This document shows positions 938 through 8,760 of a stretch of 12,257 nucleotides of DNA, one piece after another. The translations under genes and the position numbers were made by a program. How positions within the stretch are numbered: the first letter of the stretch is position 1; every line of letters starts with the position of its first letter. A model generated the notes under the pieces. The model was not told where the DNA came from and made no database searches. It worked only from the letters and a program-made list of their open reading frames with translations. Source of the DNA: a virus; the UHGV virus genome UHGV-0107510; one strand, 5' to 3'.

Positions 938-1021
938 CGTAATTACTAATCCGGGGCTATATTCACCGCACGGTCGAGTTGACCGTCGGGATTGAGACCC
1001 CGGATAGAAACCGCGACAGAC

Positions 1022-1044
1022 ACACGCCGCGAGCGTGTTTTTTA
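1022..1044 (+). terminator. Rho-independent terminator candidate
   Basis: Stem ACACGC (1022-1027) / GCGTGT (1033-1038) with a 5-nt loop, followed by TTTTTT (1039-1044). Confidence 0.5.
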
Positions 1045-1204
1045 TTGTCGTATGCACGCGCACATCTGAATTATGGTGGGGCGTATAGGGGAGCTGAAAA
1101 GCTCGCCGGTTGGTTTCCCGGTAGTCTCAACCCTGTACGTCTCACCACCCGACGATTGAGACCTGACGGTGGTGATAGTTTAGAAACCACCCTAGGGTGT
1201 CGTT

Positions 1205-1753
1205 ATGACTACTCAAATCTCTGTTGAAACTCTTGTTGCTATTACTTACAACCAAATCCCTGTAATTACCACTGAGTTGTTGGCGCATCTTTATGGTGCA
1301 GACGTTAAGAATATTCAAAACAACTTTGCAAGGAATGTAGGGCGCTTTCAGATTGGAAAACACTTTTTTAAGATCGAAGGTGAAGAGTTACGTGAATTGA
1401 AGCACAGACCATCTTTAAGTGGGTCTGTGAAAATCGCCCGTAACGTTCGTTCCCTCATCCTCTGGACAGAACGCGGAGCAGCCCGTCATGCAAAAATGCT
1501 CGAAACCGATCAGGCGTGGGAAGTATTCGAAAAACTCGAAGACAGTTACTTCAACCAGTACGAGAAAGAGCGGACTATGGGAAAAATGAATATCGATTTT
1601 CACCTGGCGATCCGTGACGATAAAACCGCCTTCATCCGAAGTTATGCGCCTGGCGAGCTGGTGACGGTTGAAGAAGCCCTGGCTTTGCTTAAATCGCGCG
1701 GATGGCTGGTAATGCCACGAGATGAACTGGCCGGAAAATTAATGGAGCTTTAA
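1205..1753 (+). CDS. Phage antirepressor-like protein (ORF6N-type N-terminal domain)
   Basis: 182-aa ORF with AGGGTG Shine-Dalgarno 5 nt upstream of the ATG. The N-terminal 80 aa (…NQIPVITTELLAHLYGADVKNIQNNFARNVGRFQIGKHFFKIEGEELRELK…) matches what I recall of the ORF6N/antirepressor family. Confidence 0.75.
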   Translation: MTTQISVETLVAITYNQIPVITTELLAHLYGADVKNIQNNFARNVGRFQIGKHFFKIEGEELRELKHRPSLSGSVKIARNVRSLILWTERGAARHAKMLETDQAWEVFEKLEDSYFNQYEKERTMGKMNIDFHLAIRDDKTAFIRSYAPGELVTVEEALALLKSRGWLVMPRDELAGKLMEL

Positions 1754-1799: not shown

Positions 1800-2024
1800 T
1801 TACCATCGGGGATAAAATGATTTGCGGGGAAAGAAGAGTTAAGTAGAATTGCTGCGGGTGCTTGAGGCTGTCTGCCTCGGGCATGCCGCCGTAAGGCAGA
1901 CAGAGAAAAGCCCCAGTTAACATTACGCGTCTTGCAGGACGCTTAACATTAATCTGAGGCCAATTTCATGCTTTGCACATGTAGGTTAGCCTCTTACGTG
2001 CCGAAAGGCAAGGAGAAGCAGGCT

Positions 2025-2180
2025 ATGAAGCAGCAAAAGGCGATGTTAATCGCCCTGATTGTCATCTGTTTAACCGTCATAGTGACGGCACTGGTAACGA
2101 GGAAAGACCTCTGCGAGGTACGAATCCGAACCGGCCAGACGGAGGTCGCTGTCTTCACAGCTTACGAACCTGAGGAGTAA
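2025..2180 (+). CDS. hok: Hok/Gef family type I toxin (small membrane-damaging peptide)
   Basis: 51-aa product MKQQKAMLIALIVICLTVIVTALVTRKDLCEVRIRTGQTEVAVFTAYEPEE carries the Hok/Gef signature (N-terminal TM helix, LCEVRIRTGQTEVA motif). AGGAGA Shine-Dalgarno at 2011-2016, 8 nt before the ATG. An in-frame upstream ATG at 1968 would add 19 residues. Confidence 0.9.
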   Translation: MKQQKAMLIALIVICLTVIVTALVTRKDLCEVRIRTGQTEVAVFTAYEPEE

Positions 2181-2282: not shown

Positions 2283-2600
2283 TCAGGATATTACCTGGAT
2301 CCCGTTTTTCTCGACAACTGAAAGAAGCCGAAGAGCTGCACCTCCCGGGCGTTTCACTCCTCGTTCCCAGTCTGATATCAGGTTTTTACTGACGTTGAGG
2401 TATCTGGCAAAAACAGGTTGAGACAGATGCTCTCGTTCTCGCAGTGCACGGATCCTTTCTGGAGACATTACCGGCGCAGGCTGAAGACAAGTTTCATCGA
2501 ATTCGCGCATAGTTTGTTTTGTGATTGCACCGATATCATGGAGTGACTCCATCATTTCATGTACAGATGCAAGTGCATCACTGCGGTAATTTTTACTCAT
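2283..2600 (-). CDS. HTH-domain antitoxin (HigA-2-like, XRE-type C-terminal HTH)
   Basis: 105-aa ORF; the C-terminal segment LSQPVFARYLNVSKNLISDWERGVKRPGGAALRLL is an XRE-family HTH. Its ATG (2598-2600) overlaps the last codons of the upstream toxin frame by 8 nt, the usual toxin-first TA operon geometry. Confidence 0.8.
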   Translation of the reverse strand: MSKNYRSDALASVHEMMESLHDIGAITKQTMREFDETCLQPAPVMSPERIRALREREHLSQPVFARYLNVSKNLISDWERGVKRPGGAALRLLSVVEKNGIQVIS

Positions 2601-2965
2601 TGGGTACCTCCGTGAACTGGCCTTGTTGAATCAATTGTGCCAGCTGTTCATCAGTAAGATTGAGGACATGGGGAGCGGCTTTTCGAAAAGCATTTTCCTC
2701 TATAGCAGTGATATTCTCTCGTTCATTCTTTGCGTATGCGTAGATGAAAAAGGCTTTTTCTGCAACGCGGTAAAAAATTATTGTCCGGTAACCGCCTGAT
2801 TTTCCGCCACCACTTCGGGCTAATCTTTGTTTAATGACACCACTACCCAAATTTGCGGATATGATCCCCCTTATCGGCCTGCTCCACGATTTTGCGCAGC
2901 GATTTATCGGAAATCCGATGTTTTCGGGCGAAACGTTCAAACCAGGCGTTTTTGAAAATTCGCAT
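2593..2965 (-). pseudogene. HigB-2-like (RelE/ParE superfamily) toxin, apparently frameshifted in a C5/G5 homopolymer
   Basis: The ATG at 2965 with a GAGG Shine-Dalgarno gives MRIFKNAWFERFARKHRISDKSLRKIVEQADKG, then runs into a stop at 2843-2845. The rest of the toxin (IISANLGSGVIKQRLARSGGGKSGGYRTIIFYRVAEKAFFIYAYAKNERENIT…) is in the +1 frame down to the stop at 2593-2595. Removing one C from the run at 2866-2870 joins the two into a ~116-aa ORF. The C-terminal block resembles V. cholerae HigB-2 as I recall it. Confidence 0.65.
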
Positions 2966-2988
2966 ACCTGCCTCTGCATTTTATATAA

Positions 2989-3009
2989 CACATAGTGTTA
3001 CACTATGTG
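2989..3009. promoter_or_regulatory. Operator-like inverted repeat in the promoter of the toxin-antitoxin operon
   Basis: CACATAGTGT-t-ACACTATGTG: 10-bp arms with a 1-nt spacer, just upstream of the minus-strand toxin start. A TATAAA -10-like element (minus strand, about 2980-2985) sits between it and the start. Typical autoregulatory layout for type II TA operons. Confidence 0.55.
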
Positions 3010-3188
3010 GACTATGGAGGCAATCTTTATTTGAGAATGCTTGCTGATTTATCCGTGTTCAAAAAACAGACGTAATTCAGATTGTATAAACGGCAGACAG
3101 AAAAAGTCATTGTTCTTGCGCATAAAATCCTCAGATTTACTGAGTGAAATGCGTCTCTTTTCATGGTTATAGTCCGAGAGAAGCGATA

Positions 3189-7393: not shown

Positions 7394-7469
7394 GGCCCTT
7401 TAGCTCAGTGGTGAGAGCGAGCGACTCATAATCGCCAGGTCGCTGGTTCAAATCCAGCAAGGGCCACCA
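7394..7469 (+). tRNA. ileZ: tRNA-Ile (anticodon CAU, ileX-like; formally could be tRNA-Met)
   Basis: 76 nt with full cloverleaf: acceptor GGCCCTT/AAGGGCC, anticodon loop CTCATAA (CAT at 7427-7429), T-loop TTCAAAT, encoded CCA. Closely resembles E. coli tRNA-Ile2 (ileX) as I recall it. Gene names follow the ileZ-argN-argO trio described upstream of stx in Stx phages. Confidence 0.85.
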
Positions 7470-7478
7470 TATCACATA

Positions 7479-7555
7479 CCGCCATTAGCTCATCGGGATA
7501 GAGCGCCAGCCTTCGAAGCTGGCTGCGCGGGGTTCGAGTCCTCGATGGCGGTCCA
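7479..7555 (+). tRNA. argN: tRNA-Arg (anticodon UCG)
   Basis: 77 nt: acceptor CCGCCAT/ATGGCGG, D-stem GCTC/GAGC, anticodon stem CCAGC/GCTGG with loop CTTCGAA (TCG at 7513-7515), T-loop TTCGAGT, discriminator T then CCA. Confidence 0.8.
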
Positions 7556-7568
7556 TTATCAGCATCAT

Positions 7569-7645
7569 GCGTTGTTAGCTCAGCCGGACAGAGCAATTGC
7601 CTTCTAAGCAATCGGTCACTGGTTCGAATCCAGTACAACGCGCCA
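7569..7645 (+). tRNA. argO: tRNA-Arg (anticodon UCU, reads AGA/AGG)
   Basis: 77 nt: acceptor GCGTTGT/ACAACGC, D-stem GCTC/GAGC, anticodon stem ATTGC/GCAAT with loop CTTCTAA (TCT at 7603-7605), T-stem ACTGG/CCAGT, T-loop TTCGAAT, discriminator G then CCA. Confidence 0.85.
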
Positions 7646-7659
7646 GACTTATTTTTCCC

Positions 7660-7683
7660 GGCTCGCTTTTGCGGGCCTTTTTT
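7660..7683 (+). terminator. Intrinsic terminator after the tRNA cluster
   Basis: Stem GGCTCGC (7660-7666) / GCGGGCC (7671-7677) with one G:T wobble, TTTT loop, followed by TTTTTT (7678-7683). Confidence 0.55.
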
Positions 7684-7814
7684 GTCTCCGCGCCACGCCC
7701 GGCGCATATCAACCACAGAGCTTTCGGGGGTGAGCTTACGGAGTGGTCAGTGTGACTTTCTCTGTGGGCAGATCGCTCCCGGGCGTTGGCTCACCCACCC
7801 AAAGGAACGTCACG

Positions 7815-8246
7815 ATGTTTGGAATCTTCAAAAAGAAAACCCGCAGAGCGGCTGCGGAAATTAAAAAGTTTGAAAAACGCGATCTGGCACAAGCAGTGAT
7901 TAACGCTGCATACCTGGTGGCTTATGCCGATGGTGAATGTGAGGCTTCCGAGAAAGCGAAGATCGAACAGGTATTACGTAACCAGCCCACCTTGTCCGCG
8001 TTTACGTCAGAAATTAATGCGATTAGCGCAACCATTATCGGTCAGCTGGATACGAACTTTAAAATTGGTCGTCGTGCGGCGTTACGTGAGATCGAGGATG
8101 TGAAACACGATACGCGTGAAGCGGAAGACGTGCTGGATGTGGCGGTGGCCATTGCCGAAGCAGACGGCGAAATAGAGCCGGAAGAGCGCAAGGTGCTGGA
8201 AGAGATTGCCGGTGTTCTGGGCCTTCGTCTGGAGAATCATCTGTGA
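7815..8246 (+). CDS. TerB-family (tellurite resistance TerB-like) protein
   Basis: 143-aa product from ATG 7815, with AAGGAA Shine-Dalgarno at 7802-7807. It has the duplicated acidic TerB signature (…LVAYADGECEASEKAKIEQVL… and …AVAIAEADGEIEPEERKVLEEIAGVLGL…), which aligns by eye with canonical TerB. The listed ATG at 7743 lacks a Shine-Dalgarno and adds a non-conserved extension. Confidence 0.75.
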   Translation: MFGIFKKKTRRAAAEIKKFEKRDLAQAVINAAYLVAYADGECEASEKAKIEQVLRNQPTLSAFTSEINAISATIIGQLDTNFKIGRRAALREIEDVKHDTREAEDVLDVAVAIAEADGEIEPEERKVLEEIAGVLGLRLENHL

Positions 8247-8254
8247 CGGTAAAA

Positions 8255-8407
8255 ATGCGTCTGGCTGTGGTTGCGCTCCTGCTGTTTCTGGTGGTGATGG
8301 TGGACTTCAGCAGCCGGATAATGTCAGTGCTGGCTGACGGTGTGCTGGTGGCGGGTGTGGTGGTTGTTGCTTTCCCGTTGCTGAAAAAGAAAGCATCAGG
8401 CGATTAG
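8255..8407 (+). CDS. 50-aa hydrophobic membrane peptide (two predicted TM segments)
   Basis: MRLAVVALLLFLVVMVDFSSRIMSVLADGVLVAGVVVVAFPLLKKKASGD: two hydrophobic stretches and a KKK-containing C-terminus. Starts 8 nt after the TerB-like stop, suggesting co-transcription. Below the ORF-track length cut-off; found by manual translation. Confidence 0.4.
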   Translation: MRLAVVALLLFLVVMVDFSSRIMSVLADGVLVAGVVVVAFPLLKKKASGD

Positions 8408-8647
8408 CAGGGTATCAGTTACCCGTTGAAATTTTTAAATACCTCACAATTCAGGCGGTTGACTGTTGTCTGGTTTGCGGGGAGTTTGTTAAAAGAAACT
8501 GGCATGGTGAATCCCCCTGTGCGGAGGGGCAATCAGCAACTGGTGTTTTGTCACCGACCCTTATCCTTTCTGTGCGGGTTCAGGTGCTGATACTGAACTC
8601 ACCGGGAGGCACCCGGCACCATGCAATGGCACATAGCGCCACTCTCC

Positions 8648-8674
8648 AGCCCCTCTCCGGAGGGGCTTTCTTGT
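8648..8674 (+). terminator. Intrinsic terminator candidate
   Basis: Perfect 8-bp stem AGCCCCTC / GAGGGGCT with loop TCCG, followed by a T-rich tail TTCTTGT. Confidence 0.5.
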
Positions 8675-8678
8675 GGGC

Positions 8679-8705
8679 AAAAAAAAAGCCCGAGTGGGTT
8701 CGGGC
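8679..8705 (-). terminator. Minus-strand intrinsic terminator
   Basis: On the + strand, A9 (8679-8687) is followed by hairpin GCCCGA-GTGGGT-TCGGGC (8688-8705). Read on the minus strand this is a GC hairpin followed by U9. No T-run follows on the + strand. Confidence 0.5.
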
Positions 8706-8760
8706 AACAGCATGAGATATACATTTTTATAATCGAATGGATTTTAACCAGAATTCATAA

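Follow-up and report, generated by a model that had tools for sequence, protein, structure and literature searches.

HigB2/HigA2 relatives and the frameshifted module

The closest described relative of the locus reported here is the HigB2/HigA2 toxin–antitoxin (TA) pair of the Vibrio cholerae superintegron (PDB 5JA8, 5JA9, 5JAA and 8A0X). HigB2 belongs to Pfam family PF06296, which is associated with a toxin-first gene order and ribosome-dependent mRNA cleavage (2025 review, PMC11980606), and residues R51, R64, Y82 and K84 of the V. cholerae protein (VcHigB2) were found by mutagenesis to be required for activity (PMC5416850). A second point of reference is provided by degraded chromosomal TA loci with orphan antitoxins, in which the toxin has been lost by frameshift or by an insertion sequence (IS) in independent lineages while the antitoxin open reading frame (ORF) has been kept. 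Here we describe a type II TA operon of this kind in the UHGV virus genome UHGV-0107510, analysed as one stretch of 12,257 nucleotides (the window, to which all coordinates refer). Both genes lie on the minus strand: a HigB2-like toxin gene of family PF06296 (2593..2965), which is split by a one-base insertion in a homopolymer and is a pseudogene, and an intact HigA2-like antitoxin/autorepressor gene (2283..2600).

The module resembles V. cholerae HigB2/HigA2 in its toxin-first order, overlapping genes and palindrome at the promoter, in membership of PF06296 over the full length of the toxin, in an aligned RelE-like active-site quartet with a glycine/lysine-rich β2–β3 loop, and in an antitoxin whose C-terminal helix-turn-helix (HTH) domain follows a segment of about 45 amino acids. 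It differs in being prophage-borne and in carrying a broken toxin ORF; direct similarity to VcHigB2 is detectable over toxin residues 38–90 only (E 4e-4), and the N-terminal segments of the two antitoxins are without detectable similarity. The nearest relative within Escherichia coli is the intact allele WP_001217944.1/WP_000042395.1 of O157:H7, O26:H11 and O145 prophages, which has the same toxin (after repair of the one studied here), the same antitoxin and the same context on the hokD side, but has four G residues at the site of the lesion, an uninterrupted toxin ORF and G at the position equivalent to 3004.

The toxin ORF opens at the minus-strand ATG at 2965–2963, and a Shine-Dalgarno motif GAGG, read from the sequence, stands at 2974–2971 on the same strand. 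The frame-0 product consists of MRIFKNAWFERFARKHRISDKSLRKIVEQADKG followed by DHIRKFG and stops at TAG 2845–2843; this N-terminal fragment ORF (2843..2965, minus strand) thus encodes 40 amino acids, of which 33 are native (β1, α1 and α2) and seven are out of frame. The remaining toxin is carried by the +1 frame as IISANLGSGVIKQRL...PNE and ends at TAA 2595–2593; its C-terminal part (2593..2850, minus strand) holds the β-sheet and residues R47, R60, Y77 and K79, and the continuation in this frame reads IISANLGSGVIKQRLARSGGGKSGGYRTIIFYRV...FTEVPNE. The start codon and the catalytic sheet therefore sit in different frames, and the PF06296 domain is divided over two of them by the +1 insertion. 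The lesion itself is the run CCCCC on the plus strand at 2866–2870 (G5 on the coding strand), with T at either side and an ancestral length of four bases. It falls at codons 33/34, in the loop between α2 and the β-sheet of an AlphaFold2 (AF2) model. The interrupted gene measures 373 nt, one base over, and removal of one C from the run yields a single 372-nt ORF of 123 amino acids, which is protein-identical to WP_001217944.1 of O157:H7 and O26:H11.

The initial annotation had described a type II TA operon in which the antitoxin is intact and the toxin has been split by a single-base homopolymer frameshift, and had joined the two halves by deleting one C from this run. Both the reading frames and the family assignment bear this out, and a Shine-Dalgarno motif does precede ATG 2965. 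Two of the lengths it gave need amendment: the repaired protein has 123 residues instead of 116, and the chimeric ORF that opens upstream in the downstream frame has 128 residues from ATG 2979 or 132 from GTG 2991 instead of 127. An alternative start at TTG 2850 overlaps the TAG ending at 2843 by 8 nt, and an 85-aa coding sequence is modelled there by PGAP. Among RefSeq/PGAP records the broken gene appears as 40 + 85 aa (the second with the TTG start; the 40-aa fragment is WP_001365959.1), as the 132-aa GTG-start chimera or as the 128-aa ATG-start chimera. None of the RefSeq records inspected carries a pseudogene flag, and all models are named 'RelE/ParE family toxin'.

The repaired protein matched PF06296 end to end (profile positions 1–120 of 120, 161.3 bits against a cut-off of 27, E 1.4e-47), and the two native fragments matched it separately, at profile positions 1–35 and 31–120. 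By sequence the repaired ORF clearly encodes a RelE-superfamily toxin, as had been supposed. In a HMMER search of solved structures, HigB-2 chains matched over the region given above, and alignment to 5JA9_C placed toxin residues R47, R60, Y77 and K79 opposite VcHigB2 R51, R64, Y82 and K84. R47, R60 and K79 are invariant or nearly so across 70 homologues, and all four catalytic-residue equivalents are encoded 3' of the frameshift. The AF2 model was built for a 99%-identical intact protein from a 70-sequence alignment and was used solely for the order of secondary-structure elements. That order, β-α-α-β-β-β-β-α (β1 2–6, α1 7–15, α2 20–31, then the sheet), is consistent with a RelE/BECR fold at a moderate mean predicted local distance difference test score (pLDDT) of 68. 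When the model was compared with the PDB by Foldseek, HigB2 provided the top five matches, at E-values of 0.36–0.75 and template modelling (TM) scores of about 0.3, which are not significant. No model for the toxin was present in NCBIfam or PADLOC, and an assignment of the locus to a defence system is not supported by either.

The antitoxin ORF (2600–2283) encodes 105 amino acids and is uninterrupted, as originally reported; its C-terminal part is an HTH_3 domain (PF01381, 32.3 bits against a cut-off of 23, residues 50–94), ahead of which lies an N-terminal segment. Residues 45–99 matched PDB HigA-2 (E 6.7e-8), the full length matched PHROG 2104, and residues 1–44, ahead of the HTH, gave no sequence match to the N-terminus of VcHigA2. 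The protein, WP_000042395.1, is identical in genomes with an intact toxin and in genomes with the broken one. The overlap of 8 nt between the two genes (ATG/TAA, 2593–2600), also noted previously, is present. A Shine-Dalgarno motif GGAGG was read from the sequence at 2611–2607 on the minus strand, 6 nt 5' of the antitoxin ATG, and would permit translation of the antitoxin independently of the toxin ORF.

The palindrome at 2989..3009, placed 24 nt upstream of the toxin ATG, is intact as first described: its arms (2989–2998 and 3000–3009) are 10 nt long, 100% complementary and separated by 1 nt, and no inverted repeat with three or fewer mismatches was found in 200 shuffled sequences. Overlapping genes and a palindrome at the promoter constitute the layout of a type II TA operon, with the palindrome as candidate operator. 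Its perfect symmetry depends on a derived base, A at minus-strand position 3004; most alleles carry G there and read CACATGGTGT at the palindrome, a 9/10 match. In the 83%-identical allele group introduced below, the left flank is unrelated apart from the inner dyad TAACAC-TAT-GTGTTA (2986..3000), and this conserved part is probably the operator core. A scan for consensus promoters found nothing at the palindrome and returned a single weak site at 3110–3081; an extended −10 element, TGtTATATA at 2990–2982, is suggested by eye only.

Distribution and history of the C5 allele

Of 5426 complete E. coli genomes, 215 contain the TA segment, and its location is chromosomal in every case. An 80-nt probe with the run at its centre matched exactly in 37 complete genomes in its C5 form, and a further 16 genomes carried a match of the same length with one substitution, so that the C5 allele is present in at least 53; the C4 form of the probe matched exactly in 113 (both counts cover complete E. 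coli genomes only). A C5 24-mer was also present in four IMG/VR contigs, at least 1000 contigs apiece are on record for the 40-aa and the 85-aa fragment protein, and the 778-nt TA segment of the window is 100% identical to those of GE3, P15-385 and TB06053. GE3 has the C5 copy alone. Strain ST130 (NZ_CP043478.1) holds both states in one assembly: an intact copy encoding WP_001217944.1 lies in a Shiga toxin 2 (Stx2) prophage at 2.006 Mb (within 2005000–2008500), a C5 copy lies in a second prophage at 2.18 Mb (2181325–2182102), and the two antitoxins are identical.

Several sequencing platforms err most often by indels in homopolymers, and a sequencing error in a C4 run, with a toxin that is in truth intact, was one of the three explanations offered initially. 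This, like an error of assembly, is excluded by the occurrence of the identical C5 context in 37 + 16 complete genomes obtained independently, in many laboratories and on many platforms, and in the four IMG/VR contigs, and by the ST130 assembly with one copy of each length; linkage of C5 to a private operator single-nucleotide polymorphism (SNP) in 35 genomes and the 100%-identical segments of GE3, P15-385 and TB06053 point the same way. The probability left to it is negligible, and C5 is a genuine inherited allele.

The direction of the change was read from an alignment of 13 alleles, which included the C5 group, C4 group I, MFDS1019527, Z1323, FORC_069, O104:H4 and phage PhiR12_3. The extra base is confined to the C5 group: at the run, the group I C4 alleles and MFDS1019527 read GATAAGGGGATC, Z1323 reads GATAAGGGACTC and the 83%-identical group reads GATAACGGGCTT. 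Among 80 relatives kept from other species, 79 gave a single colinear alignment spanning most or all of residues 1–123, and the match to the remaining one was about 34 nt short. Since the other aligned alleles lack the extra base and the heterologous relatives are colinear, the alignments indicate that C5 is a derived +1 insertion and that C4 is ancestral, which answers the question of polarity raised in the initial annotation; no intact homologue with the extra base was found, an outcome that favours the frameshift.

Beyond the indel, the C5 alleles are separated from the O157:H7 allele by 0–3 private SNPs, which fits a single recent origin. Each of the 35 genomes with A at minus-strand position 3004 is one of the 37 with an exact C5 match, and no C4 genome has this base. 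C4/G accordingly came first, C5/G next and C5/A last, with no reversion visible. Between allele groups, the pN/pS ratio (non-synonymous to synonymous polymorphism) is 0.07–0.09 for both genes, which implies long-term purifying selection on the module and places the frameshifts as recent terminal events. One variant within the C5 alleles, W8R, alters a residue that is invariant across the toxin family and is consistent with relaxed constraint.

The toxin has also been broken elsewhere at this locus. Outbreak O104:H4, FORC_069 and phage PhiR12_3 are among the 36 genomes of the 83%-identical allele group. In this group an intact toxin is retained by some strains only, for example 2013C-3033 (123 aa), and 27 of the 36 genomes have lost one base (−1) from an A5 run at codons 15/16 (A5 to A4). 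A further −1 near codon 95 was seen in O104:H4, NMBU-W12E19 and 23CRST047, another −1 near codon 89 in 23CRST047, and an IS66 insertion in the toxin gene of NMBU-W12E19. With the C5 insertion this makes five independent toxin lesions verified at the DNA level (C5 +1, A5 −1, two further −1 and the IS66 insertion), and protein records hold still other frameshifted forms. The single, distant match in the phage collection, PhiR12_3, itself has a frameshifted toxin. The antitoxin ORF was intact in 17 of 17 alleles examined. If lesions were placed at random per base, all five of five would fall in the toxin with a binomial p of about 0.046, and a bias of lesions towards the toxin is suggestive only.

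Probable inactivation and its alternatives

The locus, situated in the nin region of a lambdoid prophage, very probably consists of a toxin pseudogene and an antitoxin-repressor left as an orphan, and of the three explanations put forward at the outset, a toxin inactivated while its regulator is retained is the best supported. As judged from sequence, the module is of the HigB2/HigA2 type, with the toxin gene first and encoding a member of a RelE-fold family of ribosome-dependent mRNA endonucleases. One G has been inserted into the G4 run of the coding strand at codons 33/34, so that ribosomes starting at ATG 2965 would terminate seven codons past the insertion with the whole catalytic sheet out of frame and no active toxin would be made. 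The antitoxin would still be translated from its own strong Shine-Dalgarno motif and presumably still represses the promoter through the dyad overlapping the −10 region, although the 243 nt of toxin remnant left untranslated upstream of it could bring about Rho-dependent polarity. Since it is identical to the antitoxin paired with the intact toxin, it would neutralize identical toxins encoded elsewhere in the cell, as in ST130. C5 probably arose once, from the intact allele of O157:H7, O26:H11 and O145, and has since been inherited stably and spread, mostly in LEE (locus of enterocyte effacement)-negative E. coli of the Shiga toxin-producing (STEC) type.

Several observations pull in the other direction. 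The C-terminal block is still perfectly intact, substitutions are too few to demonstrate relaxed selection, and neither of the two SNPs seen in the N-terminal fragment among the C5 alleles aligned changes an amino acid in the toxin frame. The structure model is of moderate quality (pLDDT 68), and none of its Foldseek matches to HigB2 reaches significance. The GGG-G context allows +1 re-pairing of tRNA-Gly, so that trace full-length toxin is possible, and reinitiation at TTG 2850, across the stop at 2843, could give the 85-aa C-terminal fragment.

These last points lead to an attenuated TA module or split toxin produced by low-level recoding, whether by +1 slippage at AAG-GGG-G, slippage at GGG-UAG or reinitiation at TTG 2850, an explanation that we consider highly improbable. 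The tRNA-Gly can re-pair perfectly one base forward on G5, as does the P-site codon in programmed +1 frameshifting of the prfB type, and the nearby AGGGGG is similar to the Shine-Dalgarno-like element that stimulates the prfB shift; the catalytic residues, all encoded 3' of the break, are undamaged, the model would place the break in a surface loop between α2 and the sheet, and PGAP calls a TTG-start coding sequence overlapping the stop. The A-site codon, however, is the common GAU and not a slow, rare or stop codon, the Shine-Dalgarno-like motif runs into the shift site and does not have the spacing of 3 nt ahead of it, and the site is not conserved but a derived lesion, inserted recently in a single sublineage; the ancestral alleles are in frame, as are 79 of the 80 relatives kept from other species. 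The toxin of other alleles has been disabled by lesions of different kinds, among them an IS insertion that recoding could not explain, and W8R affects an invariant residue within the C5 alleles themselves. Neither slippage-dependent expression, as proposed initially, nor reinitiation at TTG 2850 has positive support. An extended form, in which C5 is an attenuated but functional TA or defence module acting through rare +1 re-pairing or a two-piece toxin, with the operator mutation co-evolved and resetting autoregulation, is likewise given very little weight. A reversible on/off switch of the toxin through G4/G5 phase variation appears more doubtful still: both run lengths are common (113 and at least 53 genomes) and in the second allele group the toxin is interrupted at a different homopolymer (A5 to A4), but known contingency tracts are usually seven or more bases long, far longer than a run of four or five. 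The short tract and the derived SNP at 3004, found on C5 in 35 of 35 cases and in no C4 genome with no reversion visible after it, argue against switching; the nested private SNPs on C5 alleles speak for stable descent, and C4 and C5 coexist unchanged in the ST130 genome.

A different question is whether the orphan antitoxin has been kept by selection, as anti-addiction or immunity against identical prophage toxins, with the operator re-tuned by the G-to-A change at 3004 for repression by the antitoxin alone. We regard this as rather unlikely. In its favour, ST130 carries an intact and a C5 copy with identical antitoxins, five toxin lesions stand against zero antitoxin lesions at the p-value given above, and the SNP that perfected the palindrome arose inside the C5 clade and is now found in 35 of at least 53 C5 genomes; the literature also deals with orphan antitoxins and their cross-interactions. 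Against it, the operator change is a single mutational event for which hitch-hiking or drift would suffice, the frameshifts are young and the antitoxin may have lacked time to decay, and two of the four C5 antitoxins aligned have amino-acid changes (I to L and P to S). As regards the anti-addiction hypothesis for degraded chromosomal loci, what the sequences show here is the co-residence in ST130 with an intact, otherwise identical module.

Prophage context and significance

The TA pair is the sole minus-strand unit in a plus-strand late-early gene block of a lambdoid prophage, in the order ORF6N, hokD, TA pair, DUF968, RusA, DUF1133, methyltransferase, tRNAs and TerB-like, as taken from the annotation of the 100%-identical segment in GE3 and of the intact allele in strain 10159. 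The module is thus an oppositely oriented insert in the nin region, beside hokD/sok. Among the complete E. coli genomes of the collection, none has a match at a single place that extends over more than 85% of the window, which marks the prophage as a mosaic; the best long matches to the window are 91–97% identical, and the TA segment alone is 100% identical to several genomes.

A type I hok/sok system (1856–2180, plus strand) lies tail-to-tail with the type II module. It consists of sok (1856–2030, plus strand; Rfam, 117 bits), upstream of hokD, and of hokD itself (2025–2180, plus strand), and a terminator-like hairpin is found at 2249–2266, between it and the TA module. In the 83%-identical group and in MFDS1019527, hokD is replaced on that side by a gene for a Doc (death-on-curing) toxin. 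Further upstream, isrK (970–1043, plus strand) and a C4 antisense RNA (1069–1152, plus strand), both assigned by Rfam, lie immediately 5' of the ORF6N-domain gene (1205–1753, plus strand); the three together resemble a P1/P7-style antirepressor module under antisense control, here inside a lambdoid prophage. At the other end, three tRNAs were detected within 7394–8735 of the window, with anticodon CAT (Met by ARAGORN, Ile by PGAP), Arg-TCG and Arg-TCT. Rfam matches to STnc100 (8473–8678, plus strand) and to the 'anti-stx2 sRNA' (small RNA) AsxR (8683–8735, minus strand) overlap the TerB-family ORF. This succession of tRNAs and STnc100/AsxR is the layout of an Stx-phage late region; no stx gene was present in the ORF list of the window or in the annotation of the matching regions.

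The toxin family, the toxin-first/HTH architecture and the pseudogenization of toxins with retention of an orphan antitoxin are all already known, both alleles are already in RefSeq, and the case is one of ordinary gene decay. What is new is modest: the direction of the C4-to-C5 change and its single origin, an operator mutation that is nested within the C5 clade, lesions that arose independently in the O104:H4-type allele, and a strain in which an intact copy and a broken one reside together. For annotation, the frameshift is a heritable allele that should not be 'corrected', and the inconsistent RefSeq models inflate the count of RelE/ParE toxins in STEC genomes. In biological terms, the locus shows cleanly how lambdoid prophages in nature, that of outbreak O104:H4 among them, have repeatedly lost the toxin and kept the antitoxin, and its natural allele pairs (C4/C5, the G/A operator and both copies in ST130) would make antitoxin-only regulation and anti-addiction easy to test.

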